From positions 2,480,001 to 2,544,000 of the forward strand of contig CM075991.1 of the NCBI GenBank assembly GCA_038087875.1: a DNA stretch of 64,000 nucleotides. The letters are read 5' to 3'. How positions within the stretch are numbered: position 1 is the stretch's first letter; the number at the start of each line of letters is the position of its first letter. The translations under genes were made by a program, and so were the position numbers. Shown here piece by piece: positions 1-61,769 of this stretch. The notes under the pieces are model-generated. The model was not told the DNA's origin. It worked only from the letters and a program-made list of their open reading frames with translations, and did no database searches. Source of the stretch: Malacoraja senta (taxonomy: Eukaryota).

Positions 1-757
1 CATTGTTATACAACATTTGTTATATGGTTATATGGTTATTAGGACTGTTTCAGACACAAAGTGCTGGAGTAACTCAGTGGATCAGGCCGCATCTCTGGGG
101 AACATGGATGGGTGACGTTTCGAGTCGAGATCCTTCTTCAGCTGAGCCATCCATGTTCTCCAGAAGTGCTGCCCAACCTGCTGAGTTACTCCAGCACTTT
201 GTCTTTTTGTACATTAACCAGCATCTGCAGTTTCTATGTTAGGCCAGTATCCTACTGTCCCTTTCCTATTTAAGTGTCTTTCTAAATACCTCTTAAATGT
301 AATGCATTGATCCCACCTCCACCAACATGGTCTAGATGTCAACCACTCTCTGTATATATTAAAAAAGTGACCTCCGGATCCGTTAAAGCTCCTTCCTCAC
401 CCCTTAACTAATGCCCCCTTGTCTCTGATACCGTTAACTGGGAAAAGGATATTGACTGCCCACCATATGTCCACCATATTGACTATACCAGTCACATTAT
501 CGTGTACCATCTGATTAGTTTTGGAGATTAGAAATGTGTAGGAGTGTATCCGCTTAAATTTAAAGAGTGTTTTATAAATTGGAATGGATTAACCAAGCTG
601 TTGTTTGTTGAATGTGTTTCTGTCATGCTGTGTTTTCAGAGTGAAATCACAATAAATAAATCTTCATTTCGTAGTTATCATTGATTTAAATAACTTTGTT
701 TAAAGATGCAGCAAGGAAACAGGTCCTTCAGTCCACCGAGTCCACACTGAACATTGA

Positions 758-1525
758 ACCCTGTCTCCAACATGATCCCACCACTTGCCACATCTTCCCA
801 ACTCCTCCCCTGTCTGCTTTCCGCAAAGACCGCTCCCTCCGTAGCTCCCTGGTCAATTCGTCCCTTCCCACCCGAACCACTTCAACCCAAAAGGTGCTGC
901 GTACTTTCCCTTGCAACCGAAGGAAATGCTACACTTGTCGCTTTATCTCCCCCCTTGACTCCATCCAAGGACCTAAGCAGTCTTTCCAGGTGTGGCAGAG
1001 GTTCACCTGCACCTCCTCCAACCTCATCTATTGCATCCGCTGCTCTAGATGTCAGCTGCTCTACATCGGTGAGACCAAGCGTAGGCTTGGCGATCGCTTC
1101 GCCCAACACCTCCGCTCGATTCGCAATAACCAACCTGATCTCCCGGTGGCTCAGCACTTCAACTCCCCCTCCTATTCCGAATCCGACCTTTCTGTCCTGG
1201 GCCTCCTCCATGGCCAGAGTGAGGACCACTATAAATTGGAGGAGCAGCACCTCATATATCGTTTGGGCAGTTTGCACCACATCTCTAATTTCAGGTAGTC
1301 CTTACTTTCTCCTCCTCTTCTCAGCTCTCCCTCAGCCCACTGGCTCCACCTCTTCCTTTCTTTTCCCGCCTACCCCCCCCCCCCCCTCACATCAGTGTGA
1401 AGAAGGGTTTCGACCCGAAGCGTTGCTTATTTCCTTTGCTCCATAGATGCTGCCTCACCCGCTGAGTTTCTCCAGCATTTTTGTCTACCTTTGATTTTCC
1501 AGCATCTGCAGTTCCTTTTTAAACA
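758..1525 (+). mobile_element. 5'-truncated Penelope-like element (GIY-YIG endonuclease C-terminus plus pLTR tail)
   Basis: Encodes ...FTCTSSNLIYCIRCSRCQLLYIGETKRRLGDRFAQHL...HFN. 12-bp TSD ACTGAACATTGA (746-757 and 1526-1537). Inserted into a SINE. Confidence 0.9.
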
Positions 1526-3943
1526 ACTGAACATTGATCACCCGTTCACACTAGTTCTCTTTTCCCACTTTCACATCCACTTCCTCCACACTGGGAACAA
1601 TTTACGGTGACCAATTAACCTACAAACCTACATGTCTTTGGGAAGTGGGATGAAACCCCGGGGCACCCAGAAGAAACCCACGTGGTCACGGGGAGAACGT
1701 GCAAACGGCACATAAACAGGCCCCGAGGTCAGGATTGAACCCAGGTCTCTGGTGCTGTGAGGGAGCAGCTCCATCAGCTGCTCCACTGTGCCACCCAAGT
1801 GACTTAAACAATCAGTTTGCAATTTTTTCCTAACGCTTTGAATGGGAAGAGAGGATCTATAAAGGGTCTGGCAAAAATGGCGTTAAAGATATCTACTCAA
1901 GTAAAATCACACATAACCACGGTATTTCAGTGCAATTTTAAACTGAAATAACTTTTTATTTTGCAGGCTGATTTATGTGACAAGATGGAACAATCTTGTA
2001 TGGAAAGAGACCAGAACGTGGGAGGAAGTTGAGATGTGTAACTCGAGCTCGAGCACTTGTCAGAGATCCAGCTGTGTGACTGGATTCTTAAAGTGAAACA
2101 TGCACTTTCACAAGCAATGAAACACGTTAAATGATGTGATTTGAAAGATTAATGATGCATGGTAATAACACGATCACCTTGTTTACATCATTGTAATTAC
2201 TGTGCCACTATGTACACACAGCTTTCATCAATGAACTTCCTAATTCACATCTGGTTTCATTCTTAATATAAAAACTCCATTATTCATTCCAACATTCGCG
2301 CAAATGTAAATGGAAGCAGGTGCAATGAAACTTCCTCATATGATTAAAAATATATATTCTGCACACAAACATAGGTGAGGTTGTGGATAGTGAGGAAGGT
2401 TGTCTAAGACCCTTGCGGCATATAGATCAGGTGAAAAGTTGGGCAGAGCAATGGCAGATGGAGTGTGGTCGCAACAAACGTGAGGCGATGTGAGGTGAGG
2501 GAAGTCATAGGGTGGGGCATACTCATAAATGGTCGACAACTAAGTGATGTTAATGAACTGAAACCAAGGGATCCAAGTCCTCTGTTCCCTGCAGCAACAC
2601 TGGTCAATAGAGTGGTGGAGAAGGCAAATAGCATACTTGGCTTAATAGGTCAAGGCCCAGAGGAAAACTCTGTGACTAAGATGTTCCTGCTATAGAAGAT
2701 GGTGCCTCAATAACAAACATTTTGAAAGAAAGTAAAACTAAGCCCCTTTCTGCCATGGAGATGACCACGGCACGACATAGCTGAAGGTTTCCTCTGAGTG
2801 CTCCGGTTTCTTCCCACATCCCAAAGGTGTGTAGGTTAAATGTTAGTTTAGAGATATAGCGCAGAAACAGGCCCTTCGGCCCACCAGGTTTGCCCCAACA
2901 TGTGGTCCCCGCAAATTAACACTATCTTACATACACTCGGGACAATTTACCTTTATACCAACCAATTAACCTACAAACCTGTACGTCTGTGGAGTGCGGG
3001 GAAAAAACCAAAGACCTCAGCGAAAACCCACGCAGGTCACGGGGAGAACGTACAGACTCCGTACTGACAGCGTAGAGTGAGGATCGAACCTGGGTCTCTG
3101 GCGCTGTGAGGCAGCAACTCTAATGCTGTACCACCGTGCCACATGGTAGTTAGCCTCTATAAAATTGTCCCTGGTGTGTACGGAGTTAATTAGAAAGTGG
3201 GATAACATACAACTCGTGAACGGGTGATCTATGATCGACGTGGACCGAAGGGCCTGTTTCCAGGCTGTATCTCTAAATAAAATGATCCAATTTCTTACTT
3301 GGGTAGACTAAAAACGATTGGGACTATAACGTTATGTTAACATTTAGAATAAGGAATACGATACCAAGACATATAGACAAATGAGTACATAGGTAAGTTC
3401 AACAGGTGCAAGTTCTTAGACATGCATATATCTGAAGATCTGTCCTGGACCCAGCACATTGATGCAATCATAAAGCAAGTCCATCAACACCTCGACCTCC
3501 TTAGAAAATTGAGATTTAGGTAGGTCAATAAATACTCCATTGAACTTCTGCAAGTGTACTCTAGAGAACATCTATATTACTAACAGTAAGATCTTGACCG
3601 CGTTTGACTCACTGCGATGTGATTTCCGAGAGAACGCCGCCACTTACGGCCGTCATTTTTGGCCACCCTCCGCCGGACTGGACCGGAGGATTTTTCCCAT
3701 CGATGAACATTCAGAGAGATATTAATGTTTTTTAAAATTTCGCCATTCTCTATGCTGCCCTTGCTGGTGGGAGGGGGAGGGACTATAAAATCCGGAAGTG
3801 GTGTGCCTCACTCAGTCTCTGCAAGATGGTGGAAGCGAGAGGGTCACGTCTCTCTGAGCTCAGAATAACACTGAACACATGTCTACTCAACTGTGAGTGC
3901 CCTTAATGTGGTTTGAAAATGAAAATATGGTTGGTTTGAAAAA

Positions 3944-4392
3944 GGCACTGCAAATGGTTGTTTGGAGGGTTTGGGTTGAAGTAAAAAGGCACTGCAAATG
4001 GTTGTTTGGGTTGAAGTAAAAAGGCACTGCAAATGGTTGTTTGGGGGGTTTGGGTTGAAGTAAAAAGGCACTGCAAAGGGTTGTTTGGGGGGTTTGGGTT
4101 GAAGTAAAAAGGCACAGCAGAGAATTGCTTGGGGGTTTGGGTTGAAGTGAAAAGGCACTGCAGACGGTTGTTTGGGGGTTTTGGGTTGAAGTGAAAAGGC
4201 ACCGCAAATGGTTGTTTGGGGGTTTTGGGTTGAAGTGAAAAGGTACTGCAAATGGTTGTTTGGGGGTTTTGGGTTGAAGTGAAAAGGCACTGCAAATGGT
4301 TGTTTGGGGGTTTTGGGTTGAAGTGAAAAGGCACTGCAAATGGTTGTTTGGGGGTTTTGGGTTGAAGTAAAAGGCACTGCAAATTGTTGTTT
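3944..4392. repeat. Minisatellite, about 42-bp unit (GGCACTGCAAATGGTTGTTTGGGGGTTTTGGGTTGAAGTGAAAA), about 11 copies
   Basis: Visible tandem array. Confidence 0.95.
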
Positions 4393-4756
4393 GTCTAAAC
4401 TTGACAACTTCCTGTTAGCACTATATTGATTTTAGATAAAACGCTACCACTTACGGCTGTGATTTTGGCCATCTTACTCAGTCCCCCTCTGCTCATCAGG
4501 TGCAGAGGATTCTTCCCATCAATTAAATTTAAAAGTGTTATAAGTGTTTAAAAAATGTTGAGAATCTCTCTCCTGTCAATCACACCATGAAGGCCACACC
4601 TTTTCCGGTTGCAGGGGGTGGGATTATAAAACCCGGAAGTGTGGGTGTGGCTCAGTCTGCATGATGGGGAGGGAGAGGTCACGACTCTGAACTGTGAATC
4701 AACTGAACACACTGAATGTCTACTGAACTGTGAGTGTGGTGTTTTGTGTGGTTTTA

Positions 4757-5105
4757 TGGTGGTTTCACCCTGCTTGGTATGAAACTGCATTTGAATGTGG
4801 TGGCCTTGCACCCTGCATGAAATGGTATGAAAGTGCATTTGAATGTGGTGTCGTTGCACCCTGCATGAAATGGTATGAAACTGTATTTGAATTTGGTGGC
4901 CTTGCACCCTCCTTGAAATGGTATGAAACTGCACTTGAATTCGGAGGCCTTGCACCCTGCTTGAAGTGGTAGGAAACTGAACCTGAATGTGGTGGCCTTG
5001 CACCCTGCTTGAAGAGGTAAGAAACTGCACTTAAATTTGGTGGCCTTGCACCCTGCTTGAAATGGATTTGAATTTGGTGGCCTAGCACTCTGCTTGAAAT
5101 GGAAT
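4757..5105. repeat. Minisatellite, about 48-bp unit (GGTGGCCTTGCACCCTGCTTGAAATGGTATGAAACTGCATTTGAATGT), about 8 copies
   Basis: Visible tandem array. Confidence 0.95.
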
Positions 5106-6144
5106 TTCAAGGAATAGCCGCGAGTCAACTGCCTGCCCACCAGCCGTGAGTGAGCTGCCAGCACATCAGACGTGAGGGACTGAGCTGCCACCCCAAAAAT
5201 CCATTTGGCCCACAATGTCTATACTAGTCCTCTGGAGACCAGTAGTCCCTGCAGCCAACATCACCTATACCAGCGCTCCAGAAAGCCCCCCCCCCCCCCA
5301 CTGGCCACCAATATTGGAATTGGTGGAGAGGTGGAATATTGCATCGGGGGACCAGCCCTCCCGTGTGAACATGGGACCCTACGGGTCCCACTTAGTCTAG
5401 TATTGACTGGTTGCATCACAGCCTGGTTCAGTGACTCAAACACCCAGGAACTAAGCAGATTTCAAAAAGTGGTCCTCAACAGGGTACTGACCTCCCCATC
5501 ATTGAAGGGGTCTGTAAGAGGTGCGTTTCAAAAACACTCCCAGCATCATCCGATGAGCCGGCATGGGGAGAAACCACAGAGAGGGAGAACAAAGGAGGAT
5601 CCGGTGTGGGGGAACTGCCAAGAACTAAGGGGGATGTGTTAAAAATGGTTTGTGTAAAATGGAATAGTTTGTAACGTTGTCTCCGCTCTTTATGTGGCGA
5701 CGTTTTGCATACATTGGGTGAGTAAAACAAGAATATCATGTGATTTGTCACGTGTGACAATAAACTCATTCATTCAAGGAACTACGCCACCCTGGCCACA
5801 CAGTCATTTCACTCCGGCCATCGGGAAGAAGGTACAGGAGTCTGTAAACTAACGTCCAGGTTCAAGAACAGCTTCTTCGCAACGACCATCAGGCTATTGA
5901 ACACCATGAACGCCAACTGAACTCCAAACTGCGTTCACTGTACTAGAGACTTCGGGCTTTGGCTTTTTTGCACCGCATTTGGGTATTTTTTAATCCATTA
6001 ACTTTTTTTTTACATTGTTGACTTCAGTGTACACAGTTGAGTACATGACAAAAAAACACTCGACTCAGACATTGCTGAACTTCACCATTTCATCACATTA
6101 TTAGGCGGCACTTCTAAAGGGTTCTCCCATTGCTCACATACTAA

Positions 6145-6230
6145 CTGCTGCACACACCTCTCACCACTAGATGGGACTTCAAAGCTGCTGCACACACCTC
6201 TCACCACTAGATGGGACTTCAAAGCTGCTG
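6145..6230. repeat. Perfect 40-bp tandem duplication
   Basis: CTGCTGCACACACCTCTCACCACTAGATGGGACTTCAAAG twice, plus CTGCTG. Confidence 0.95.
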
Positions 6231-6291
6231 TCCCCATTTTACTTCAAAAATTACACCTTAAATTTTCTTTCAAAGCATTTTTAAATATATA

Positions 6292-7010
6292 TTTTTTAAT
6301 TTTTATTAGAAGCAATTGTACACAGATAAAACATTCGGCATCTAAAATTATACAATTATTGTATAGCTTCATTTTTAACCTTATAACCTGAAAATGAAAA
6401 AAGAAAAGAAAAAGAGAACAAGACAGAAAAAAAGTGAAAAGATAGATCGAAAAAGAATAAGGGAAAGGCCTCTAAACTACCAAAGTATTGTGGCCGAAAG
6501 ATATAGAAATAAGAAAAAAGGAAAAGAAAGGTGGAGATATACCTTGCCCCTCATCCCCCCCTCCCCGCCCACCTCACCCAACCCGGCATCAGATTTAAAT
6601 TTAAATTTGTGTTGCACCATACTATTCTTGTAAGAATTCGGTGAAGGGTGTCCATGTCTTGAGAAATTGATCTGGTTTTTCCGCCAAGACAAGCCTAACG
6701 TTTTCCAAATGTAGTGTCTCGGACATGTTTGTGATCCACATCTTCACTGTAGGGACTGTTGTCTGTTTCCAAAATTTAAGTATTAGTTTTTTCGCCGTTA
6801 TCAGGCCATAATTAAGAAAACGTCTTTGAAATAATGTTAGCTCAGAGCAGGCCTCTGACATATCTAATGTGATCAATTTTATGTCGGGATCCAATTTTAT
6901 TTTAAGTATTTTGGAAAAGATATCAAAAATTCCCATCCAGAAGTTTTGTAATTTTGTAAAGGAAGCAAAGGAATGGGTTATGGTTGCTTCTTGGGGGAGA
7001 CATTTAGCTT
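6292..7010 (-). mobile_element. L1/Tx1-clade LINE 3' fragment
   Basis: AKKLILKFWKQTTVPTVKMW...FLKTWTPF (L1-type ORF2 C-terminus); A-rich 3' end. Confidence 0.75.
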
Positions 7011-8088
7011 CGAAGGTAAATCAAATCTCTTGTCTATTTTCACTGGCTCCTTTCTTTGAAAATGTCCCCAATTTCTTGCCGATAAAGCAAAAAAGTTTTC
7101 AGAAATTAAAAAAGTTCTCTTCAATGCAAGTCTGTCAAACAGCATTTAAACTTCCCTCCTCTACCTCCCTTGGAACCAGATCAGAAGGAACAGCTGATAG
7201 GAACAAGAGCAGTTTGACTTGCGCCCAGTATCAACACAAAAAGACAAACACTGTGGCAATAACAGCTTTTGTTTTGACTCATCAGAAAAACTCTGCCCAT
7301 TGTTTGCGTAACTATCCACAGGCCGTGTCTTGGCAAAATAACTGAAAATGAAAATGCTGACTAAAATTGCATTTCAATACCTGGAATTATTAATCATTTA
7401 GGAGGATGCAGTTTACAACCTAATTTCCAAATTGTGATGGTTCATTTAAGGGTTACTAGAATAGAAACATAGAAAATAGGTGCAAGAGGAGGCCATTCAG
7501 CCCTTCGAGCCAGCACCGCCATTCATTGTGATCATGGCTGATCGTCCCCAATCAATAACCCGTGCCTGCAATAGTACAGCATAGGATACAGCATAGGAAG
7601 GAAAGAAGCATAGATAGACAGTCAGAACCTTTTGTCCCAGCATGGAAATATACAGCACTAGAGGGCATAGTTATAAGGTGAGAAGGGGGACGTTTAATGG
7701 AGATGTATGGGTGTGTTATTGAGATGTTTTGTTGCATAGAGTAGTGATGTAAAAACAATTTGTTGCATAGAGTAGTAATATAAAAACAAGGATGTAATGT
7801 GGAGGCTTCATAAAAGGCACTGCTCAGACTGCATTTGGAATTGGCATTTGAAATTCAAGTTGGCGATATGCAGAATACTGCCCTGCCGACTACAAATTCA
7901 GAAGGATTATCATGAGTTTTGGGCCAGGATTTTAGACGATGGGCCGAATGGCCTAATTATGTTCCAAAAACGTATGAACTTATGAATAGTGATGTCTAAG
8001 ATGCTTTTAGATGGGCATTGGGATATGCAGGGAATATGGATCATACACCGGCAGATGATACCAGTTTAACTTGCATCATGTTCACCAT

Positions 8089-8634
8089 TGTTAGGTGCTC
8101 CCCCTCCTGGTCAATGTTATGTATTAACCTTTCTCTGTTTCTTTCCCGAGTGCAGGCTAAAAGGCTCCTGTACCCAATTGGCCAAGCTGCGTCAGGTGAC
8201 GGGTGACTCATCTGAAGTATAAATACGAGAGTTCCCAGAATTCTCGTTCTCTCTCCGACGACCCTGCCTCGTGAGCTGATTGCTGGTGTGGGCTGTGGAA
8301 GGCCTGGCCACATGGCATAGAACTTTGTGTAATTTCAACATTACGTAGTACCAAATATTGAATTGGGCTGTCCTTAGAAGTTATCGGTATTTTGTTTCAG
8401 GGATAGCTTTCTTTTAGGCAGGTTTAGAGCCTCAGGTTCGACGGTCCATCGCGTGGCTGGCCTGAGCACTTTTAAGTTGTTTGTTAATCCATTCATATCC
8501 TTGTCTGGGTTGTTTGAATCAGGTTTGGGTTTTTGGGTGTGTTATTGAGTAATTAAAAACTATTTTTGAACTTAAACCTGGTTTTTGACTTATGTTACGC
8601 GACTCTGAAGTACCTGCTTTCGGGAGTCGTAACA
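8089..8634 (+). repeat. 5' LTR
   Basis: TGTTA...TAACA; TATAAATA near 8218; near-identical to 11622-12168. Confidence 0.95.
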
Positions 8635-8637
8635 AAA

Positions 8638-8650
8638 TGGGGGCTCGTCC
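8638..8650 (+). promoter_or_regulatory. Primer-binding site, tRNA-Pro
   Basis: TGGGGGCTCGTCC, 3 nt after the 5' LTR, equals the first 13 nt of the canonical tRNA-Pro PBS. Confidence 0.85.
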
Positions 8651-8734
8651 TAAGTTTTGAGGACCCTAGACGTTTTGGGGGGTTTTGGTAGGCTTCTGGT
8701 GACTGAGGAAGTCTGTGTGTTGTGAGGGAAATTT

Positions 8735-10162
8735 TTGTTCCCTGTTTGTGGTAGCATTGGTGCCCAGGGTTTAGCTGGTGCTTTGGCTACATTTGATATG
8801 GAGTCTAAATGGAAGGACTTTATTGAGGCTCCTAGTCGGAAGTTGTTTGATCGAGGTACGAAGGAGCATTTGATTTTTCTGGCAGAGAACTATGAAGTGC
8901 CTATTGACCCACATGCAAAGAAACAGGTAATTAAATCGGTGTTGTGGGCTGCATTGGTGGACCGTGGGGTTTTGCCTGGCTGTGCAGACAGTCCCACACC
9001 TTCCGGTCAGCCTGGTCAGGCCATGAAGGCAACCATAAGGTTGAAGAAGTTAGAGCTGGCATTGGTGACCAAAAGAGCAGAGGAGGAGACAAAAAGAGCA
9101 GAGGAGACAAAAAGAGCAATGAAAAAGGATGAGCTCATGCATGTTCTTGAAATGAAACGGCTTGAGCTTGAGGAGGAAACCAAGAGGGCACAGATTAGGC
9201 TGCGGGAGAAAGAATTAGATATGATTATGGAAGACTTTGGGAATGATCTCCCTGAGAGGGTTACTGCTTACCTTAATGAGCAGAAGGTGAATGAGGTGTC
9301 TGGAGCCGCGGTGTTGGCAGAGGAGTATGTATTGACTCATAAAACTGATTTTGTTGGGTGCTCCTATAGTTTTGATGCATGGCCGGTTGATCGTGGTGGT
9401 GTCGCCGGTGGCAGTGTCAAAGATGTTTCTGTGCCTGCAAGTGGCAGCACGTTGATACAGGGGGAGGTCCGAGCTGATAAGGTTGAAGGAAATTTGAGGA
9501 CTAGCGAAGGTCCTGTGTGCTACTATTGTGGAGGGAGAGGGCACATGTTAAAGGCGTGTCCCGTTCTGAAGCAGAAAGATGCAAAGCCTGTGGCTTTGGT
9601 GGGTACACAGAAGGCACCTGTGGTACCTGAGGTGCCTGAGTCTGATGAGTGTAGGAATTATTCTGCGTTCATCATGAATGGTTTTGTTTCTCTGGAGGAT
9701 GGGGGTGATAGAGTTCCAGTATCCATCTTGCGTGATACTGGTGCTACTCAGTCCTTTATATTGGAGAGTGTACTGCCGTTTTCTGGGGAATCATCGGTTG
9801 GGTCAAGTGTCCCTGTGGTAGGATTCGGGATGGATGGCATGGTAGTGCCTTTGCATACCGTGAGTCTCGAGTCCGAGTTGGTTTCAGGCCGGGTAACTAT
9901 TGGGTTACGGCCGTGTTTTCCCGTTGAGGGAGTTTCTGTAATTTTGGGGAATGACTTGGCAGGAGGTAGAGTTTTAGTTACTCCTGAGGTGACGGCTGTT
10001 CCGATGGTGCAGAGTCCTGACAGATTGGCTATGCAGCATCCGAGGGTCTTCGCAGCTTGTGCTGTCACGAGGGCTATGGCTAAGAGCCAGGCGAAGTTTG
10101 AGGATGTAGTGGACCTGAGTGAGAGCATTTTGGGGATCAGGATGAGGGATCCTGTGTTGTGA
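8735..10162 (+). CDS. Retrotransposon Gag-protease ORF (coiled coil, CCHC zinc knuckle, aspartic protease); appears internally shortened
   Basis: CYYCGGRGHMLKAC knuckle; LRDTGATQS and ILGNDL protease motifs. Confidence 0.85.
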   Translation: MFPVCGSIGAQGLAGALATFDMESKWKDFIEAPSRKLFDRGTKEHLIFLAENYEVPIDPHAKKQVIKSVLWAALVDRGVLPGCADSPTPSGQPGQAMKATIRLKKLELALVTKRAEEETKRAEETKRAMKKDELMHVLEMKRLELEEETKRAQIRLREKELDMIMEDFGNDLPERVTAYLNEQKVNEVSGAAVLAEEYVLTHKTDFVGCSYSFDAWPVDRGGVAGGSVKDVSVPASGSTLIQGEVRADKVEGNLRTSEGPVCYYCGGRGHMLKACPVLKQKDAKPVALVGTQKAPVVPEVPESDECRNYSAFIMNGFVSLEDGGDRVPVSILRDTGATQSFILESVLPFSGESSVGSSVPVVGFGMDGMVVPLHTVSLESELVSGRVTIGLRPCFPVEGVSVILGNDLAGGRVLVTPEVTAVPMVQSPDRLAMQHPRVFAACAVTRAMAKSQAKFEDVVDLSESILGIRMRDPVL

Positions 10163-10280
10163 TGGGTGTTTCTACATCTCAAGAGGGGATAGTGTCTGGA
10201 AATGTGCCGGTGTAGCTGTCAAATGACTGGTTGAGGAGCAAAAGAGTGATCCAGGTTTATCTGAGCTGTTCGACCGCGCG

Positions 10281-11555
10281 GTGCCTGAGGGGGATATGGA
10301 TTCCACAGCAAAGGGGTATTTTCTAAGGGAGGGCGTACTGATGCGAAAGTGGTCTCCCTTGGATGTATCTGGGCATGATGATTGGAGCGTGGTTGATCAG
10401 ATTGTAATACCTCGTCGGTATAGGGACGAGATTGTTTGGCTCATGATGGTCCTCTGGGTGGACATTTGGGAGTCAATAAGACGAATGACCGTATCTTATG
10501 GAATTTTTTTTGGCCAGGGTTGAAAAAGGACGTGAAACAGCAGTGCAGGTGTTGTCACATTTGCCAGGTGGCAGGAAAGCCAAACCAATCGATTGTTCCT
10601 GCGCCTAAGCCTGTTTTGGCTGCAGTGGTGCTGCCCCCTGACACGGGTGGTGAGGCATTTGGGATGCGCAATGCGCCGGCAACCTTCCAACGGTTGGTGA
10701 ACATTGTATTGTCTGGTTTGTCCTTCTGTGAGGCATACCTTGATGATTTGGTTGTGTGCTCCAGGTCGTGGATCGAACACATCGGTCATCTGAAGGAGGT
10801 ATTCCATCATCTAGCGGAGGCAAAGCTAACTATCAATCTGGGGAAGTGTGAGTTTGGCCAGGCCACGGTAACGTATTTGGGTAAGGTGGTGGGCCGGGCT
10901 CAGGTTCGCACTCTCAAGGAAAAGGTGGAGCATATTGTCGCATTTCCTGCTCCAACCTCGAGGACTGAACTCCGTAGGTATCTGGCTATGGTTGGTTACT
11001 ATAGGGGATTCTGTCCAAACATCTCTGCGGTGGCTGCCCCTTTGACGGATTTGCTGAGTCCAAAGGTAGTTTTTGTGTGGTCCGCAGTGTCAACAAGCCT
11101 TTGATCATACTAAAAGTCTTCTGGTGCACACACCTGTGCTTGCGGCACCTGATTTTGAGCGTCCATTTAAGCTGGCAGTGGATGCTAGTGATCGTGGGGT
11201 TGGGGGAGTTCTTCTACAGGATGATTCAGATGGGGTGGAGCATCCAGTTTCGTACTTATCTAAGAAGTTTAATCGGCATCAGAAGTGGTACTCCACCATT
11301 GAGAAAGAGGCCCTTGCTATTTTAATGTCTCTAAATCATTTCGAGGTTTATGTTGGCTCCTCGAATGTCCCTGTCATCATACTCACGGATCATAATCCGT
11401 TGGTATTTTTGCATAATATGAAGAATAAGAACCGACGGTTAATGAGCTGGAGTTTGCAGCTGCAAGACTACAACCTGGAGGTCAGGCATATCCGTGGCAA
11501 GGATAATGTCTTGGCTGACGCCTTGTCGCGCCAGTGGAGTTTAGCTCCTGAATAG
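10281..11555 (+). pseudogene. Disrupted pol: integrase Zn-binding N-terminus, then partial RT, then RNase H
   Basis: AHDGPLGGHLGVNKT...CHIC (HHCC); FGMRNAPATFQR and AYLDDL (RT); AVDASD, EKEALA, TDHNPL and NVLADALSR (RNase H). Frameshifts near 10436 and 11080. Confidence 0.88.
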
Positions 11556-16904: not shown

Positions 16905-16925
16905 ACTGTTTGCAGGATGTGCTCT

Positions 16926-47000: not shown

Positions 47001-50000
47001 AATAATGAACATTAGACGGAAATCCGCCTATTTTTAAATGATTAGCAAAATCAACTTGGAAGCAAAGGAAGAATAAAATTTTGAATCTATTTTCAATTCA
47101 TAGCACATGTTTGGACATGAACAAACATAGACCCTACCTTCAAAGAAAATGGTTGCCCAAAATCCACTCGAACGCAGCCGTATCGCTTGAGTAGAAATCT
47201 GAGTATCCAACAAACTGCTCCAAAGATTGTCGTCGCTCTGGTACCCTGCACAGTACAAGACATTTACAATCTCTGTAACCACTGCTCAGGACACAGGCCA
47301 AGTATACAGACCATGTCAGACTGGGTTGAGAAGGCACAGGTCCTCATTGACCTCAGAATCTTGCCCCATCCTCTCACAAAGATGCCAACTCCAAATTCCC
47401 TCGGTAAAGCCAGTGTCGAACGTAACATCGGTTGCTAAGAGTGTGTGAGCAACTTTCACCAAAATAGACCAGGTAGTTATTTCACTCCCTGCGATGTGCT
47501 TCCTTGCACAACTTCTTTCTAAAAATACCAAGCAGATTCTGTAAAGGAGAAAAGCCAGAAACTGCTGGAGTAACTCAGCGGGTCCGGCAGCATCTCTAGA
47601 GGACATGGATAAATGACGTTTTGCGTCAGGACCCTTCTTCAGTGTGATAGTTGGCGTTTTGGGTCTGAGGAAGGGTCCCGACTCATAACGTCACCTATCC
47701 ATGTGCCCCAGAGATGCTGCCTGACCGGCTGAGTTACTCCAACACTTTGGGTCTTTTTTTGTTAGCCTGTATCTGCGGCTCCTTGCTTCTTCAAGTGCAG
47801 TAAATGGTCTGGCTTTGCTAGCTTGGAATACTGACAGAACAGCAGAAAAACCTAATGGTGTCCAAGCGCTACTAGGCAAAGGAATCTAAAAGGACTTGTG
47901 TCCAAGCTAAGATGGTGAATTTAAGAGGACTTGTGCAGGCAAAATGTCAATGTTACCAAAAGCATGTTGTGTCCGTCATATAAATAAATGATGCATATGT
48001 GCTACAAGTTTTGTAAGTAACAACAGGGTAAGTGCTGGAGATGATGGTGAATTTAGAAGCATTGAATTTCGCTGGGGAAATGCTACACAGGGTACAAGAT
48101 ACCTTTCTGTACCCCTGACTCTTGGCTATTTTTCAAGTCAGTCTGGACTTCAAAAATCAATAAAAAAAACATCTGTTATTGGTATCTCAGCAAAGATCAC
48201 ACAAGCTCCTCATGCCAAATACACTTTCCAAATGTCAGGAGATACTGATCACAAGTGGAAAAATTACTCCAAATATTCCTCTCTTTGGCCCAGAGGATAC
48301 GTTATAGCAAATATTTTTGCATCTTGTGCTCCTTCAGTTGAGTTTAGTTTAGGAACACAGCATGGAAACAGGCCCTTCGGCCCACCAAGTCCATGCCAAC
48401 CATCAATCACCCATAGATTAATTCAATCCTGCACCCTACGGACAATTTACAGAAGCCAATTAACCTGCACGTCTTTGGAATGTGAGAGGAAACCCGGAGC
48501 ACCCAGAGAAAACCCACGCGGTCACAGGGAGAACATGCAAACTCTGTACAGACAGCGGGTTATAGTCGGGTTCAAACCCGGGTCTCTGGTGCTGTAAAGT
48601 GTAGCAACTCTACCGCTGCACCACTGTGAGAGTGACTGGATAAACAAGGGCCGAGTTATTAAAAAGAGTTTACATAACAAGAAATGATTGTGGGCCAGAT
48701 CACACTGTGGGGATTCGTCTAGCTGGTGGCTCAAGTGTAGGCTGCAGGACTTGAGCACATGATATCTACAAATACCTGAGCACAATATTGAGGAGGAAAG
48801 GCACTGTAAATTGACTCATAGAATTACATGTCAAACTCTGGTCCCATCTGCCTGCTCAGTTGGATATTAAATGTCCTGAATGACCGTGTGATGAGTTGAG
48901 GGCCTGTCCCACTGTACGAGCTAATTCAAGAGTTCTCCCGAGTTTCCCCTGATTCGTACTCGGAGAATTACGGTAATGGCCGCTCATAGGTACTCGGGGC
49001 CCTCGTGGACATTTTTCAACATGTTAAAAAATCTTCATGAGTCTTCACGAGCTTACCGTGTTTCCCGAGTACCCGCCGTTAGCGTTACGAGCCGCTAAGA
49101 GACGTCCCGAGCTCCGACGTACCCGCTATGTACTTATCACGAGTTTGATTTTTTTTTTCAACTCGGGAGAGCTCTTGAATTACCTCGTACAGTGGGACAG
49201 GCCCTTAAGAAATCCTCTTGGTTCATTTTCCTCTCTCAACAAATGCTTGATTCTTGCGGGATTGTGAAAAGTGGTTGCCAGATGAAGTGAGAAACATGGA
49301 TTTCTCAAAGATAGATCTATTGATGAAGTGCTTTGAGGTTCAAGCACGAATACGACTAAAATACTCATTCTTTATTGCTTTACTAATGAGAAAGTTGAAG
49401 CAGCTCATTTCTCCGCAACATCTTAGTTTGGGAACTGCAGAGTTGTGGATGTAGCCCAGTCCATCACACAGACACAGACTCCCCACCATTGACTTCATCT
49501 ATTTGTCACACTGCCTCGGAAAAGCAGCCAACATATTCAGAGATACACTAAATGCTGGAGTAATTCAGCGGGACAGGCAGCACCTCTGGAGAGAAGGAAC
49601 GGGTTACGTTTAGGGTCAAGACCCTGGTTTCGACCAAAAACATCACCCATTCCTTTTATCCAGAGATGCTGCCTGTCCCGCCGAGTTACTCCAGCATTTT
49701 GTGTCTATCTTCGGTGCAAACCAGCATCTGCAGTTCCTTCCGAAACATATTCAAAGACTTGACCAACCCCAGTCATGCCTTCTTCCCGCTCCTGTTGAGC
49801 AGAAGATAGAAGCTTGAAAGGGCGTACCACTAGACTCAGGAATAGCTTCTTCTCCTGTTATCAGGCTGTTGAACAGTCCTTCCATACGCTAGGATACTGT
49901 CCGATTCACCTCTAAACCAATGCGGATATTAAACTGTCCACAATGTAATTGTAATCAGCCTGAAGAAGGGTCTCAACCCAAAATGTGATCAGTCTGAAGA

Positions 50001-53000
50001 AGGGTCTCGACCTGAAACGTCACCCATTCCGTCTCTCCAGAGATGCAACCTGTCCCGCTGAGTTACTCCAGCATTTTGTGTCTATCTTCGGTTAAAACAC
50101 CATCTGCAGATCCTTCCTACACATTGGACTGTCTCTGGAACTGGTGCGCTGCAATGGTGGGAACTATATTCTGCACTCTGTATCTTCCCTTCTCTAGCCC
50201 AATTGTGCTAGCATTTGGCTTGATTGCGTATCCACCAACAGGATAGCATGCAACAAAAAAAGCTTTTCACTGTACCTCGGTAAATGTGACAATGAACTAA
50301 ACTATGTATAATATTATCTAATCTAATTGGACAGCATGAGAAATAAAGCTTTTCATTGTATCTCAGTACACGTGACAATAATAAACCTAACAATAGACAA
50401 TAGGTGCAGGATTAAGCCATTTGGCCCTTCAAGCCAGCACCACCATTCAATATGATCATGGCTGATCATCCACAATCAGTACCCCGTTCCTGCCTTCTCC
50501 CCATATCCTCTGACTCCGCTATCTTTAAGACCTCTATCTAACTCTCTCTTGAAAGCATCCAGAGAACCGGCCTCCACCGCCTTCTGAGGCAAAGAATTCC
50601 AGACTCACAAATCTGTGTGAAAAAATGTTTCCTCATTTCATAGATACATAGAAAATAGGTGCAGGAGGCCATTCGGCCCTTCGAGCCTGCACCGCCATTC
50701 AATATGATCATGGCTGATCATCCAACTCAGTATCCCGTACCTGCCTTCTCTCCATACCCTCTGATCCCTTTAGCCACAAGGGCCACATCTAACTCCCTCT
50801 TAAATATAGCCAATGAACTGGCCTCAACTACCCTCTGTGGCAGAGAGTTCCAGAGATTCACCACACTCTGTGTGAAAAAGTTTTTCCTCATCTCGGTCTT
50901 AAAGGATTTCCCCCTTATCCTTAAGCAGTGACCCCTTGTCCTGGACTTCCCCAACATCGGGAACAATCTTCCTGCATCTAGCCTGTCCAACCTCATAAGA
51001 ATTTTGTACGTTTCTATAAGATCCCCTCTCAATCTCCTAAATTCTAGCGAGTATAAGCCAAATCTATCGTCTTTCTTCATATGAAAGTCCTGACATCCCA
51101 GGAATCAGTCTGGTGAACCTTCTCTGCACTCCCTCTATGGCTATAATGTCCTTCCTCAGATTTGGAGACCAAAACTGTACGCAATACTCCAGGTGTGGTC
51201 TCACCAAGACCCTGTACAACTGCAGTAGAACCTCCCTGCTCCTATACTCAAATCCTCTTGCTATGAAGGCCAACATACCATTCGCTTTCTTCACTGCCTG
51301 ATGCACCTGCATGCCTATTTTCAATGACTGCTGTACCATGACACCCAGGTCTCGCTGCATCTCCCCATTTCCTAATCGGCCACCATTTAGATAATAGTCT
51401 GCCTTCCCGTTTTTGCCACCAAAGTGGATAACCTCACATTTATCCACATTATACTGCATCTGCCAAACATTTGCCCACTCACCCAGCCTATCCAAGTCAC
51501 CTTGCAGTCTCCTAGCATCCTCCTCACAGCTAACACTGCCCCCCAGCTTAGTGTCATCCGCAAACTTGGAGATGTTGCTTTCAATTCCCTCGTCCAGATC
51601 ATTAATATAAATTGTAAATAGCTGGGGTCCCAGCACTGAGCCTTGCGGTACCCCACTAGTCACTGCCTGCCATTGTGAAAAGGACCCGTTTACTCCTACT
51701 CTTTGCTTCCTGTTTGCCAGCCAGTTCTCTATCCACATCAATACTGAACCCCCAATACCGTGTGATTTAAGGTTGTATCCTAATCTCTTATGTGGTACCT
51801 TGTCGAAAGCCTTTTGAAAGTCCAGATACAACACATCCACTGGTTCTCCCCTATCCACTCTACTAGTTACATCCTCGAAAAATTCTATAAGATTCGTCAG
51901 ACACGATTTACCTTTCGTAAATCCATGCTGACTTTTTTCCAATGATTTCACCACTTTCCAAATGTGCTGCTATCCCATCTTTAATAACTGACTCTAGCAG
52001 TTTCCCCACTACCGATGTTAGACTAACTGGTCTGTAATTCCCCGTTTTCTCTCTCCCTCCCTTCTTAAAAAGTGGGGTTACGTTTGCTACCCTCCAATCC
52101 TCAGGAACTATTCCAGAATCTAAAGAGTTTTGAAAAATTAGCACTAATGCATCCACTATTTCTGGAGCTACTTCCTTAAGTACTCTGGGATGCAGCCTAT
52201 CTGGCCCTGGTGATTTATCGGCCTTTAATCCATTCAATTTACCCAACACCACTTCCCGACTAACCTGGATTTCACTCAGTTCCTCCATCTCCTTTGACCC
52301 GCGGCCCCCTGCTATTTCCGGCAGATTATTTATGTCTTCCTTAGTGAAGACGGAACCAAAGTAGTTATTCAATTGGTCCGCCATATCCTTGTTCCCCATG
52401 ATCAATTCACCTGTTTCTGACTGCAAGGGACCTACATTTGTTTTAACTAATCTCTTTCTCTTCACATATCTATAAAAACTTTTGCAGTCAGTTTTTATGT
52501 TCCCTGCCAGTGTCCTTTCATAATCTATTTTCCCTTTCCTAATTAAGCCCTTTGTCGTCCTCTGCTGGTCTCTGAATTTCTCCCAGTCCCCTGGTATGCT
52601 GCTTTTTCTGGCTAATTTGTACGCATCATCTTTTGCTTTGATACTATCCCTGATTTCCCTTGTTATCCACGGATCCACTACCTTCCCTGATTTATTCTTT
52701 TGCCAAACTGGGATGAACAATTTTTGTAGTTCATCCATGCAGTCTTTAAATGCCTTCCATTGCATATCCACCGTCAACCCTTTTAGAACTAATTGCCAGT
52801 CAATCTTGGTCAATTCACGTCTCATACCCTCAAAGTTACCTTTCTTTAAGTTCAGAACCGTTGTTTCTGAATTAACAATGTCACTCTCCATCCTAATGAA
52901 GAACTCAACCATATTATGGTCACTCTTGCCCAAGGGGGCACGTACAACAAGTCTGCTAACTAACCCTTCCTCATTACTCAATACCCAGTCTAGAATAGCC

Positions 53001-56000
53001 TGCTCTCTCGTTGGTTCCTCTACATGTTGGTTTAGATAACTATCCCTCATACATTCCAAGAAATCCTCTTCCTCAGCACCCTTGCCAATTTGATTCACCC
53101 AATCTATATGTAGATTGAAGTCACCCATTATAACTGTTTTGCCTTTGTTGCACGCATTTCTAATTTCCTGTTTGATGCCATCCCCAACTTCACTACTACT
53201 GCTACCAGCGTTTTCTGCCCCTTAGTGTTTCGCAGCTCTACCCATACCGATTCCACATCCTCCAAGCTAATGTCCTTCCTTTCCACTGCGTTAATCTCCT
53301 CTCTAACCAGCAATGCTACCCCACCTCCTTTTCCTTTCTCTCTATCCCTCCTGAATATTGAATATCCCTGGATGTTCAGCTCCCAGCCTTGGTCACCCTG
53401 GAGCCATGTCTCCGTGATCCCAACTATATCATAATCATTAATTGCTATCTGCACGTTCAACTCATCCACCTTATTACGAATGCTCCTTGCATTGAGACAC
53501 AAAGCCTTCAGGCTTGTTTTTACAACGCTCTTACCCCTTATACAATTATGTTGAAAAGTGGCTCTTTTTGATTTTTACCGTGGATTTGTCTGCCTGCCAC
53601 TTTTACTTTTCACCTTGCTACCTATTGCTTCCGCCCGCATTTTACACCCCTCTGTTTCTCTGCTCACCCATTTAAGAACCCCACCACCTCTTATTCTCTG
53701 TTTATTATTGTTTTCTTCCTTCCCCCCTACATGTTGGGTCTGAGTGCTTTCCTTCTCTGCCTCCTGCCTCACACACTGTCTAATAGCATTCTCTATTTGA
53801 GTCCCTCCCCCGAACCATTCTAGTTTAAAGTCTCCCCAGTAGCCTTTGCAGATCTCCCCGCCAGGATATCGGTCCCCCTCAGGTTCAAGTGCAACCCATC
53901 CTTTTTGTACAGGTCGAACCTTCCACAAAAGAGGTCCCAATGATCCAGAAATTTGAATCCCTGCCTTCTGCACCAGTCCTTCAGCCACGCATTTATCCTC
54001 CACCTCGCTCCATTCTCAATGGCTTACCCCTTATTCTTAAACTGTGTCCCTGGTTCTGGACTCCAACATCGGGAACATATTTCCTGCCTCTAGCGTGTGC
54101 ACACCCTTAATAATCTTATGTCAGGACTTCAGTGAGAAAATACTAAGAATGCACGTTTGAACGAAACCTATTTCCTTTTGATAATTAGAACAAAAGGTGG
54201 TTTTACACTGCAAAACGGAAAAACTATGTGTTTTACTAGAAAGCAAAGAAACGCTCTTACCATCTGCTCAAAGCTGTTGTTCTCCACAACACGATCATAA
54301 GACACCCCCACAGGTATCAGCACCGCATTTGGTATTGAATGGTGGTGAAAAGCACTGAACACTCCTGCTAGCCACTCCAATCCCGTGCAAGAGGGATGTC
54401 CACAAGATGGAACTGGGTCTTCCAGATACACCACCAGACTTTGCTGCGCCTTCAGTAATTTCTCCACATACTGCAAACATTGGACACAGATAGTAAGAGA
54501 ATTCCTTCAGACTCAAATATGTTAACATTCACACAATAATGATCAGCAAGCGCGTCAAAGGTTTACGGGATCAAGGCAGGAGAAAGGGGCCGTGAGGGAA
54601 ACAAAATAGATCAGCCATGTTCAAATGGCGATGAATCAAACGGCCCAATTCTGCTCCCGTGCCTTATGAACATAAACCACTCCTCGTGTGCTGTAGGGCC
54701 TTATGATGACAGGCAGATTCCTGGTGGGGTTATATATCAGAGGAGAGCAGCAGCAATCAAATCCATGCAAGAATACTAAGGGAATAAAATACACTAGAGA
54801 GAGAAAATAGGACCCCTCAAAAAGCAGTGTTCATCCATGTGGGGAGCTGCAGGGGATGAGCAAGGTTCTCGAAGAATATATCTCCTCTGTTTTTACCACA
54901 AAGACACGAAGACTAGAGAGCCTGGGAAAGTTAACAGTGATGCCTCGAGGACAGTGCCTTGTGCAGGCGGAGAGGTGCTGGGTGTCTTAAGATGTATGAA
55001 AGTACTTACATCTCCCTTGCTTGATAAGATATAGCCAAGGACACTGTGGGAAGCTAGGGAAGAGATTCCAGGAGCCCAAGTTGAGATATCTGAAGCATTG
55101 TTAGAAATAGGCAAGGTGTCAGAAGACTAGTAACTAATGCTGAGCCTCCTTTTAAGAAGAGATGCAAAGAAAAACCTGGGAACTTGGTTGATGATGATGA
55201 AGAAGATGAGCTTAACATCTGTGGTAGGAAAGTTACCGCAGAGGATTCTGAGGAATAAGCTCTACATCATGCATTTGGAAAGACGTGCTTTTTGATTAGG
55301 CATGGTTTTGCGGGTGGGAGATCATGCCTCAGGGATTTGATTGTTTTTTGAAGTAGTAACAAACTTCACAAGGGCAAGGCTGTGGACTATAGGGACTTCT
55401 GCAAGACCTTTGATGAGGTTCTGCATGGTAGTTTGCTCTAGAGGGTTCGAAGATGGTTCTTTGTAGCATATTGGAGGCATGAGACTTGCAGTGTGTCTCA
55501 GAGATTAGTCCTGAGCCCATTGCAGTGCCATCTAATCAACGATTTAGGCACTGCTGGCACGATTAGCAAGTTTGGTGATGACGCTAAAATAGGTGGAAAC
55601 TATGTCAATATGGTTATCAAGAATTACAGCAGGATCTTGATCATTTGGGTAAGTGGGCCGAGAAAAGGCAAATGGAGTTTAATTCAGATAAGCGTGAAAT
55701 GTTGTACTTAGGAAGTCATACCCAAGGTAGGATCACAGTAAATTGGAGGGCCTTGGAGAGTGTTGTAGCGCAGGAGGCCAAGTATAGAGTTCCCAGACAA
55801 TAATGTCACAGGTAGATTGCATGGTGAAGGCGGCTTTTGGTACATTGGCCTTCATCAGTCAAGGCGGCACTGGATTTAAAACCCCTCGGAGCCTGGGATC
55901 TAAGATAGCCAGAGTCGGAGCTCCAACCAGCGCGGCCGGAGGACTTCGGGAGACGCGGTCTCCGGGGAGGAAGCGGCCGCTCCAGACATTCCAAACCGCT

Positions 56001-59000
56001 GAGGAGTGTTCACCCGACGCCGGAGTTCCATCTTCCCGGCAAGAGGGCCTGAAGCATCGGGTTGCCGTAGCAGCGACTGCGGAGGCCAGAATAGGCCCGA
56101 CTATGGGTGAACAAGGGACGGGACTGGACTTTGCTGCCTTCCCCCACAGTGGGAACCATTGTGGGGGGATGTTTTTATGTTTATTGTTAAATTCTTTAAT
56201 GTTGAGTCTTTTCTTTATTCGTGTGCTGCAATGGCAAGTCAAATTTCACTACACCAATTGGTGTATGTGATAATAAATGTCCTTTGTAAATGATTAGATA
56301 CATTGAGACGTTACAGTTGCACAAAACATCGGCAAGGCCGCACATGGAGTATCGTGTTGAGTTTTAGTCACCCTGCTATTGGAAATATGCCATTAAGATG
56401 GAAAAAGTGCGGAGTGCAGTGCAAGAGTGCAGATGTTGCCAGGACTTGAGGGCCTGAACAATGGGGAGAGGTTGTGCAGTCTAGGTCTTTATTTCTTGAA
56501 GTGCAGGAGGCTGAAGGGTGATCTTAGAGGTGTATAAAATCATGAGGGGTATAGAGTGGGTGAATGCACACAATCCTTTTTCCAAGATACGGAATCAAGA
56601 ACTAAGGTGAGGGGGAGAGAGATTTAATCGGCACCTGAGGGCAACTTTTTCCACAGAGGGTGGTTGATATATGGAATGACCTGCCAGAGAATGTAGCTTA
56701 GCCAGATATAATAACAAATTGAAAAGATCTTTAGACAGATACATGATTAGGAAAGGTTTTGAGTGATATGGACCAAACACAGGCAAATGGGACTATCTTA
56801 GATGGGGGATTTTAGCAGTATAGATGAGTTGAGCGGAAGGACTTGTTTCTGTGCTGTGTGACTCTATGGATGTGACTTGACACGTTTTACCTCCTGCCTA
56901 AATGTTGACTCTGTCTTCCAGCAGGCAAGCATGGAATGTTTTGTCTATGACTAAGTGCAGGTAGATGGGAATGGTGTAGAGAGGTGTAGGAAGGAACAGT
57001 TGATGCTGGTTTAAACCAAAGATAGACACAAAAAGCTGGAGTAACTCAGCGGGACAGTCATCATCTCTGGAGAGAAGGAATGGGTGACGTTTCGGGTCGA
57101 GATCCTTCTTCAGTGCCTCCTCCAAAGCTAATATTTCCTTCCTGACTCGAAACATCACCCGTTCCTTCTCTCCTGAGATGTTGCCTGTCCCGCTGAGTTA
57201 CTGCAGTTTTTTGTGTCTATCTATGGTGTAGATAGGTACTCTGTGTCAGCATAGAGGGCTGAAGTGCCTGTTTCAGCGTTGTACACTGTTGTACAGTGTT
57301 GTACTGCTTCATTTGCCGAGGAATTGAGATCCTAACATGTTATTGTTTAAAAAAATGCCGGAAATGTTGGCACTTCTGCCCAACCACCCAACTCCATGCC
57401 ACATAAGAATAATATAAAACAAATGTCAAAACTTGCATCCATCACAAGTAATCAGTGAATGATCCATCTGAACTGGAAAAGATCACCCGTTTTGTGATGT
57501 TGCCAAATCTTCCAAGGATTCCCAGGAAATGCAGGGATTTGCGGGCTGCTCCCGTTGTGTTTTGAGTCAATGGGTTTATTTTCAGCTGTGGATCTCAGTC
57601 AGCATTTCTTTGTTGCTGGACTTGAGGAAAAGCTGGTTATGTCTGGTTTTCAAACACTTCAGGAATGGGTCAATAGACTTGATTGTGCCATGTGTGCTCC
57701 ACGCTAGAGGAAGGAAGTTTGTGCTTGTCTAGCTTCTAGACTTCAATGGTGCAGTGTTCACAGTAACAGGACGTGCTGACATTGTTACCCAGGCAAGAGA
57801 GAGTGAACAAGTTAAGTACGTTTGCATGTTCGGCTGAGAGGCCATCTGAGGAATTTATTTTAACCACATTCCTGAGGTTTTGTCTGTTGAAGCATAAATT
57901 CCTTTTATTCTTAAACAAACAGAACCCCTTCCCAAATTTTCTGTCCCGAATCTTATTGCAAACCACCAAAGAAGCCATGTTTATTTTATATAAATATGCT
58001 TGGCAAACATCGATATGATAAAAGTCTTGGAGACTGGTATAAAACCAGATCACTTGTTTAACACTTTCTCCAGGCGAAGGCCATTCTAAACACTGGAAAG
58101 TACTCTGTTCAATGTTATTTAAAGTGGAAAATGTTCTTTTGGCACTGATGAGCTGGGTTTGTGTTACATAATTAAGTAGTTGGGGGAAAGAAGAGAGAGA
58201 AAGAGAAGGCTATTCGATTCTCACACTGGGGTATTTTCCTGATCACTTGAATTATCCAGCACCAAGTGTTATAGTTCTTGAAAGTGTCAATGAAGTTCAT
58301 AGATCAGATCTCCCCTCAGCCTACGACGCTCCAGGGAAAATATTCCATGTTTGTCCAGTTTCTCCTTTTAGGGAATAACCTCTAATCCAAGGAGCATTTT
58401 GTCAAACTTCATTTGCACCCTCTCCAAAGCCTTCACATCCTTCCTGTAAAGGGGTGACCAGAACTGCACACAAGACTCCAAATGCAGCCTCACCAAAGTC
58501 CTATAAAGCTGCAAGGTGACTTCCTTACACTCAATGCCCCGACAGATGAAAGCACGCACACCATACAAGATCAAGACATTGTTTCAACCAACCGAATTTA
58601 AGACAGTCTTGTGCAAGTTCTTCCCGGGGCTCATCGCAGTTCCATGCAGTAGCGGTGGAGTGAAGATCCCTCCCAATCTCTGCAGCAGAGTCCTGACCAG
58701 TTCAAAGGACACAAAACAAAGAGCATCACATATACATGCGCCGTCACCTCCAAAGTAGCATCAAAGATATTTTTAAAACCTTGAGCAAAGTAGCTGCTAC
58801 ATTCACAGGCACCAGCCCCAGGCGTGACACAAACTGTGACGTCTGATGTTCGGCTGCTGACCCAGAAGTACACCAACCGCGTCCAATATATGTTCCTCCA
58901 TTGCAGACATGCTTCTTTGGGTGGCAGGTTGGAGGTGGGGCTTGGATGGATGAGGCGAGAGGCCGTGAGCTAGTTTCTTTACCCTTAAAAATATTTTGTC

Positions 59001-61769: not shown

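Follow-up and report, generated by a model that had tools for sequence, protein, structure and literature searches.

The 64-kb window analysed here (the whole stretch of 64,000 nucleotides of skate DNA) carries many copies of a short motif resembling the core of hammerhead ribozymes, on both strands and also within the introns of a host gene. The questions are what these motifs are, how they arose and whether they cut the RNA of the gene in which they lie. We consider it probable from the sequence evidence that they are minimal type I hammerheads in the pLTRs of several skate Neptune/Nematis-type Penelope-like element (PLE) families. Most copies would be short decaying stubs, which likely originated from capped uncleaved RNA and which likely do not cut the GPAT2 pre-mRNA.

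The initial annotation claimed more than 20 copies of the motif and named 20 sites. All of these sites carry it on the strand assigned to them, with an offset of a few bases at most, and 25 cores were counted in the window. A pattern scan allowing up to four substitutions yielded 23 matches, whereas none was obtained in any of 20 shuffles of the window with dinucleotides preserved; two further cores are one at 38949 (plus strand) with a 1-nt deletion and a partial one at 49605-49632 (minus strand). A core was scored as intact when it had the core boxes, four stem II pairs, G10.1-C11.1, self-complementary 15.2/16.2 and at least 2 bp of stem I. This rule, applied to 21 cores of the window, leaves just three as intact (20067-20094, 34567-34594 and 45917-45944, all on the minus strand). 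The segment 45646-45682, previously suggested as a test RNA, has G10.1-U11.1 and is not among the three. A profile search detected 56 tail pieces, which cover about 9% of the window (a slight overestimate, since the profile includes flank columns), and duplications of 8-15 bp flank 8 of 20 window insertions. Under the same scoring, the core density is 1 per 3.0 kb in the window vs 1 per 5.1 kb in a 600-kb genome sample. The hammerhead family was absent among the 14 Rfam matches of the window at E ≤ 5, as expected for a core lacking stem III; the miRNA matches in the same scan are spurious, these sequences being head-to-head stubs.

The host gene is GPAT2. Over 95% of its length, the exon at 54249-54470 is identical to a GPAT protein of the thorny skate; most of the other matches are GPAT2 of rays and sharks. 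Since the 16 exons run on the minus strand from 61777 to 16929, the copies noted before at 20064 and 34563 are indeed intronic and in the sense orientation, and so are all three intact cores. The gene and the Penelope pieces and cores of the window are as follows:

16929-61777, minus: GPAT2, 16 coding exons in the window; copies inside this span are intronic
51-236: head-to-head stub, core 114-141 (minus) with a stem II mismatch and without stem I, fused to a tail-bearing forward piece
690-1525, plus: 5'-truncated PLE copy with the end of the RT thumb, CX4CXXC linker, GIY-YIG endonuclease (frame 690-1298; PF01541 above cut-off), pyrimidine-rich 3' UTR, broken hammerhead core 1397-1424 and then the long tail
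19726-19753, plus: decayed core, GAAA box lost, adjoining an inverted piece
20067-20094, minus: intact core, stem I of 2 bp (unformed in context), GPAT2-sense, in the last intron
29144-29171, minus: decayed core
29565-29592, plus: core boxes present, stem III palindrome lost
30011-30247: head-to-head pair, cores 30087-30114 (minus) and 30116-30143 (plus), both damaged, the joint being a TCAG-N-CTGA palindrome
31706-31733, minus: decayed core within the head-to-head stub 31646-31863
33616-33643, minus: core boxes present, stem I of 1 bp; at 950 nt, the closest partner of 34567-34594 on its strand
34567-34594, minus: intact core, stem I of 3 bp, GPAT2-sense, with predicted pairing to antisense sequence in that intron
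35482-35509, plus: decayed core, GPAT2-antisense
38949-38975, plus: core with a 1-nt stem II deletion, 11-bp target-site duplication
43356-43743, minus: 5'-truncated copy retaining the endonuclease end and the 3' UTR, together with a broken core (43456-43483) and the tail
44741-44949: head-to-head stub, decayed core 44818-44845 (plus), source of a spurious Rfam miRNA match
45138-45165, minus: decayed core
45650-45677, plus: core boxes present, G10.1-U11.1, stem I of 4 bp, GPAT2-antisense
45816-46026: head-to-head stub, intact core 45917-45944 (minus) inside a long hairpin, 11-bp target-site duplication
46315-46911, plus: copy of an older PLE family with endonuclease end, 3' UTR and decayed core 46828-46855
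47559-47789: head-to-head pair, decayed cores 47615-47642 (minus) and 47665-47692 (plus)
49545-49747: head-to-head stub, partial core 49605-49632 (minus), 10-bp target-site duplication
49960-50123, plus: direct mini-tandem, cores 49960-49987 (broken) and 49994-50021 (G10.1-U11.1), the second beginning G-ATCAGT, an extra-G junction
56984-57225: head-to-head stub, core 57086-57113 (minus) with a stem II mismatch and without stem I, 10-bp target-site duplication

Other repeats share the window. A broken Gypsy-like LTR retrotransposon (8726-11555, plus) retains a gag zinc knuckle, a protease-like stretch, an RT fragment and RNase H frames. Inside a GPAT2 intron lies a long LINE of CR1 type (51064-53574, minus), its endonuclease and RT spread over three frames, and shorter CR1-type pieces are found at about 17435, 39896 and 59740. 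The frame 6622-7020 (minus) had no Pfam match; to us it resembles the C-terminal part of an ORF2 of L1/Tx1 type. At 3883-5218 there are two tracts of tandem repeats, whose minus strand has long open frames. A second abundant repeat, seen at 1566-1800 and many other sites, often stands beside Penelope stubs and is presumably a tRNA-derived elasmobranch SINE.

The motif is linked to a GIY-YIG endonuclease, as was proposed from the start, although in other bounds: the frame is 690-1298 instead of 758-1525, 1525 being the position that the insertion reaches. The hammerhead does lie downstream of this frame, though not directly, as its core begins about 100 nt past the stop. The domain scores above the Pfam cut-off. 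Searching the genome with this frame gave 88,375 first-look candidates, 150 of which were scored, and the longer copies add an RT with the motif YLRYIDD (the RVT_1 match is below the cut-off, E 1.5e-5). The window frame and its relatives share the linker CNRRKCYTC (CX4CXXC), and the endonuclease contains a CCHH motif. A CX2-5CxxC linker between RT and EN has been defined for Neptune/Nematis-type elements (PMC8557442). By these motifs, and not by a tree, the families can be assigned to EN+ PLEs of Neptune/Nematis type, with Neptune and Nematis left undivided.

Full-length units span about 3.8 kb between hammerheads, and the same hammerhead and tail stand both behind the endonuclease and before the ORF. 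In one copy (L069) two hammerheads about 3.8 kb apart flank the ORF; the upstream one is also present in L064 and L070, and in all three copies hammerhead and tail run on into the ORF, a candidate ATG lying about 35 nt past the long tail end. The 3' ends of family A fall at 62-65 nt (25 of 65 copies) or 98-99 nt (18 of 65) past the cut site, and these two insertion ends about 35 nt apart correspond to the Penelope tail. An inverted piece lies immediately upstream in 131 of 366 copies anchored on the downstream part. The N-terminal coding region contains a variable array of an approximately 24-nt repeat, which encodes a low-complexity peptide and differs in length by copy (L035, L039, L050, L057). 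In the window, 1293-1396 (plus) looks intron-like, with GT at the ORF end, a pyrimidine tract and CAG before the hammerhead. The Penelope family was also seen in contig sets of related organisms; a metagenome protein scan yielded no relative among 148 candidates. Two records from a metagenome collection (L197:201-227, minus, and L198:10-36, plus) share core and stem II with the skate motif but differ in the loops, and their flanks are unrelated; the cores match by construction of the search pattern, and stem I of L197 is 3 bp.

The identification as a Penelope pLTR minimal hammerhead with a palindromic vestigial stem III is supported, and so is the linkage to a GIY-YIG element. The core CUGAnGA...GAAA...UH is present in the subfamily majority sequences. 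Stem II has 4 bp, with G10.1-C11.1 in 160 of 204 copies and an extra unpaired A between 9 and 10.1, and the palindromic 15.2/16.2 (ACGU) occurs in all subfamily consensuses, where the 4-bp duplex amounts to −1.7 kcal/mol. Most intact copies (47 of 54) have a stem I of 2 bp, and it seldom forms in predicted ensembles.

The 204 copies were clustered on downstream columns only, which gave four subfamilies of at least eight copies (three smaller clusters with 14 copies were excluded). The majority sequences differ in one of the 11 core columns (G12, which belongs to a CpG, in the oldest cluster), in two of the 14 paired ones (U-A to U-G each time), in 3 of 7 free ones and in 11 of 57 downstream, the last figure including some alignment shifts. 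As the core and paired columns barely vary, the masters seem to have kept a hammerhead-compatible sequence, and probably the master lineages alone did so, while the inserted copies decay. The earlier description of stem II pairing as mostly kept, base swaps included, beside a varying loop applies in part. The U-A/U-G swap is real, yet it is a fixed one-sided difference between subfamilies, and the loop does vary, yet largely through CpG decay. The stem check gave two such one-sided changes and no two-sided change between the four consensuses, and a two-sided change at one pair was found in only 4 of 204 copies from this same genome, so that compensatory covariation was not found among the skate copies. 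In two older subfamilies, G12 has changed in 12 of 51 and in 15 of 28 copies. Outside CpGs, the core diverges by 4.8%, paired positions by 9.4% and the downstream part by 6.2% (core vs downstream p 0.04); the slightly lower core value may reflect ascertainment. Signals of selection on individual copies are mixed and small, and the decay of the stubs is mostly at CpGs.

The copy number in the 1.94-Gb genome is very high. One exact 28-base pattern gave 28,199 genome matches and a pattern of core, stem II, NUH and two stem I pairs found 42,787 perfect copies, with none in either control. Sixty evenly placed 10-kb stretches from large contigs contained 118 recognisable cores, of which 21 (about 18%) are intact; scaled to the genome, this corresponds to about 380,000 recognisable (314,000-453,000) and 68,000 intact cores (42,000-97,000). 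Tail pieces cover about 4% of this sample, again slightly overestimated by the flank columns in the profile. The large genome-wide ribozyme load that had been expected is therefore borne out as a count, and not as an active load, with some 18% of cores intact and stem I nearly always 2 bp. For comparison, about 4,000 hammerheads were reported for coelacanth and about 9,000 for Xenopus (PMC4209133). The skate numbers are well beyond these published vertebrate counts, although search methods differ.

The 5' ends of the stubs are informative about their template. Among 366 anchored copies, 144 ends lie at −5 to 0 relative to C3, and 98 at −4 to 0 with the mode at −3; the 46 ends at −5 are inflated by short or diverged UTRs invisible to the script (15 were flagged), and the −19 to −6 bin is empty by construction. 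Only five copies start at the cut site, and 60 reach into the 3' UTR. The ends are spread over −4 to 0 instead of falling on one base, which counts against a single start. Genome-wide, the base preceding A(−3) in the young subfamily is G in 829 copies and A or T in 1,199, whereas an internal control, 3 nt past the cut site, gave 18 copies with G and 123 with A or T in front. Thus 41% of the starts at A(−3) whose preceding base is not C have an extra G, vs 13-19% at the control (Fisher p 2e-12; 1e-5 after subtraction of an estimated 47 palindromic junctions), and flank composition predicts 20%; the remaining 59% of these starts are without extra G. In a small sample, the G excess was only slight (8 of 20), which, like the starts without G, weighs against a cap origin. 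Direct mini-tandems gave 610 genome matches, and a hand count of 100 listed ones showed G before A(−3) in 25 of 31 non-C cases. In one copy (L210), the extra G is placed between the target-site duplication and the element.

An extra G at full-length L1 insertions has been ascribed to the mRNA cap (PMC11702581). The extra G at the shared start of the skate stubs likewise likely records the capped 5' end of an uncut template RNA, although an alternative without a cap might hold, in which the enzyme adds C to run-off cDNA of any kind. Genome-wide, 205 starts fall at the cut site itself, vs 141 at the control 3 nt further, and the 12 loci examined among the 205 showed that they include internal deletions, palindromic junctions and point mutants. 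The footprint of cleavage in the starts would accordingly be a small excess at most, the 205 being one tenth of the number of non-C starts at A(−3) (2,028), though a little cleavage may have taken place. In copy L227, a piece of the element's own ORF start is immediately followed by a stub that begins at the cut site, possibly a self-insertion or a template jump. With A(−3) taken as +1, the sequence TCAGT at the shared start fits the consensus of an initiator. An internal promoter of the initiator type, lacking a TATA box, is present in Drosophila Penelope (PMC2377424).

We propose that Pol II starts at the initiator-like TCA(+1)GT, 3 nt before the core, a position deduced from the DNA junctions, and that reverse transcription is primed by the element protein inside the RNA, at one or the other tail site. 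Such internal starts at tail sites were demonstrated in vitro for the anole element (PMC11167929). Priming in the upstream pLTR would end in run-off at the cap, some 95 or 130 nt on, and leave a stub with the whole uncut hammerhead, and two run-off cDNAs joined at their ends, often via the TCAG-N-CTGA palindrome, would give the head-to-head stubs. Priming in the downstream pLTR would produce the longer 5'-truncated and the full-length copies; extended copies are compatible with circular templates as well. The hammerhead would be kept on master elements, acting as a dimer of two pLTR copies, probably with the help of a protein, with the stubs as passengers. Cleavage of the full-length RNA would take off the cap. 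As the mRNA would start 3 bases before the hammerhead, we tentatively suggest, as a possible though rather doubtful extension, that the ribozyme is a protein-gated decapping switch that removes a 31-nt capped leader and turns the mRNA into a non-translated, ligatable template; the stubs would then be strong-stop-like run-off cDNAs of uncut capped RNA.

The same fixed start, two fixed ends and target-site duplications would also suit a non-autonomous, SINE-like family of short units with its own internal promoter and start, mobilised in trans. The Drosophila promoter cited above is in line with this, and the oldest subfamily has no upstream endonuclease-coding DNA in its 4 extended copies. The other three large subfamilies are, however, tied to such DNA (19 of 22, 8 of 24 and 4 of 8 extended copies), the tail sequences are common to stubs and ORF-linked copies and no stub-only lineage was seen, so we find this origin unlikely. 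An origin of the shared start in a 3' splice site, or in a structural stop truncating the cDNA, is suggested by the GT after the ORF end, by the polypyrimidine tract and CAG ahead of the core, by the palindrome TCAG-N-CTGA that centres many inverted pairs and by the D. virilis Penelope intron that ends at helix I (PMC4209133). Yet the mode of the starts is A(−3) and not the base following AG, 95 of 155 non-inverted copies at risk have the same start and neither splicing nor a stop explains the extra G. A pLTR intron was rejected, as the genome contains no copy of the predicted spliced junction at up to one mismatch; a GT..AG joint was absent among the 15 of 72 joints listed from four contig sets, a weak result, these being possibly DNA runs. 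We regard this explanation as quite unlikely. In the inferred transcript the motif spans +4 to +31, a zone in which downstream promoter elements lie, and it might be kept between subfamilies mainly as such an element or as a protein-binding site and not as a catalyst. A vestigial stem I, the lack of two-sided covariation and the in vitro insertion by anole ribozyme mutants (PMC11167929) would agree with this. Against it, all subfamily changes in the motif are tolerated in hammerheads (loop 2, H17 C/U and the two U-A to U-G changes), and the extra base at 9/10.1, G10.1-C11.1 and the palindromic 15.2/16.2 are also found in PLE hammerheads whose sequences are unrelated (PMC4209133). A mainly promoter or binding function is extremely improbable, and promoter and catalyst roles can coexist.

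It had also been suggested that intact sense copies could cut GPAT2 introns co-transcriptionally; in this reading, the transcriptome of the skate would bear a heavy load of active ribozymes. The 42,787 perfect copies, the three intact sense copies in GPAT2 introns and the 610 close direct tandems found by the short pattern speak in its favour, and Xenopus introns are depleted of tandem retrozymes (bioRxiv 10.64898/2026.07.22.740005). Folding and partners were analysed for 54 intact copies in 1.25 Mb. A compatible partner on the same strand lies within 200 nt of only 2 of them, within 1 kb of 10 and within 4 kb of 24, counts that are underestimated by the use of 10-kb pieces, whereas an antisense copy lies within 300 nt of 18. 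For the three intact window copies, the predicted probability of the stem I, which is 2 bp in most intact copies, is at most 0.055 in a 178-nt context, and in longer context they are predicted to pair with antisense sequence. Orientation was scored in GPAT2 and seven spectrin-repeat gene intervals (629 kb). All cores were 76 sense vs 72 antisense and intact cores 20 vs 13 (p 0.30; 95% interval of the sense share 0.42-0.77), or 13 vs 9 without the interval inferred from two exons only. Cuts in introns need not block splicing, so cutting is compatible with the absence of depletion; the orientation test rules out a strong sense deficit only, and harmless cutting would leave none. Hammerhead monomers of the PLE class were reported to be inactive and dimers weak (PMC4209133), and the anole ribozyme cut only with protein and was dispensable for insertion (PMC11167929). 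With a weak stem I, few dimer partners and no sense depletion, the intron-cutting claim found no support: the stubs likely do not cut the GPAT2 pre-mRNA, and co-transcriptional cutting of host introns appears very unlikely. If single intronic copies did cut, each skate would have thousands of intronic self-cleavage sites; the present tests argue otherwise. Arrays of at least three hammerhead-length units, head to tail, were observed at G000:C1:260875992-260876078 and C2:2199110-2199256, and these may be the best natural candidates for dimer-competent ribozymes.

The arrangement of a hammerhead in a PLE is itself already known and will not surprise a specialist. The minimal hammerheads of metazoan PLE pLTRs (described in 2014 by Cervera and De la Pena, PMC4209133) share with the skate motif the core boxes, the extra base at 9/10.1, G10.1-C11.1 and the palindromic 15.2/16.2 without loop 3, as well as mostly solitary copies from truncated elements and pairs on opposite strands. 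The skate stems I and II (2 and 4 bp) differ from those of Schistosoma (4-5 and 7-8 bp) and D. virilis (2 and 6 bp) described there; the text of two supplementary files of that study contains no skate or shark terms. The Poseidon element PAc of Anolis carolinensis (Frangieh et al. 2024, PMC11167929) similarly has two internal RT starts, a 30-40-nt tail and a hammerhead at the pLTR-ORF junction, with uncleaved RNA as the main substrate and cut-site reads reported as absent. PAc is, however, of the Penelope/Poseidon type and its ORF starts in stem II, whereas the skate element has a linker zinc finger and its candidate ATG beyond the long tail. A C-terminal GIY-YIG with CCHH, a CX2-5CxxC linker, 5' truncation, partial tandems, an adjacent inverted 5'-truncated copy and a one-sided tail are shared with the Neptune and Nematis clades (Craig et al. 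2021, PMC8557442), from which the skate element, assigned by motifs, differs in the variable tandem-repeat stretch of its N-terminal part. Non-LTR retrozymes (bioRxiv 10.64898/2026.07.22.740005), reported in one chondrichthyan, also carry type I hammerheads from PLE pLTRs. They form tandem arrays of full units, whereas the skate copies are nearly all solitary or head-to-head apart from the roughly 610 close direct tandems; retrozyme-like arrays were not encountered in our set, with a direct tandem upstream in 5 of 189 copies. The L1 junctions (PMC11702581) resemble ours in a non-templated 5' G read as a copy of the cap; they belong to full-length insertions, whereas the skate G marks PLE stubs of 95-130 nt and about 41% of non-C-preceded starts. 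Titles and abstract beginnings of the listed open-access matches contained no account of the skate family or of a cap G in PLEs.

The junctions provide testable coordinates, namely a likely capped start 3 nt before the ribozyme and RT starts about 95 and 130 nt into the transcript. The evidence on the template points to mostly uncut RNA. If the decapping switch were true, the skate genome would constitute a base-resolution fossil record of the transcription start, the reverse transcription starts and the cDNA joining of Penelope elements.
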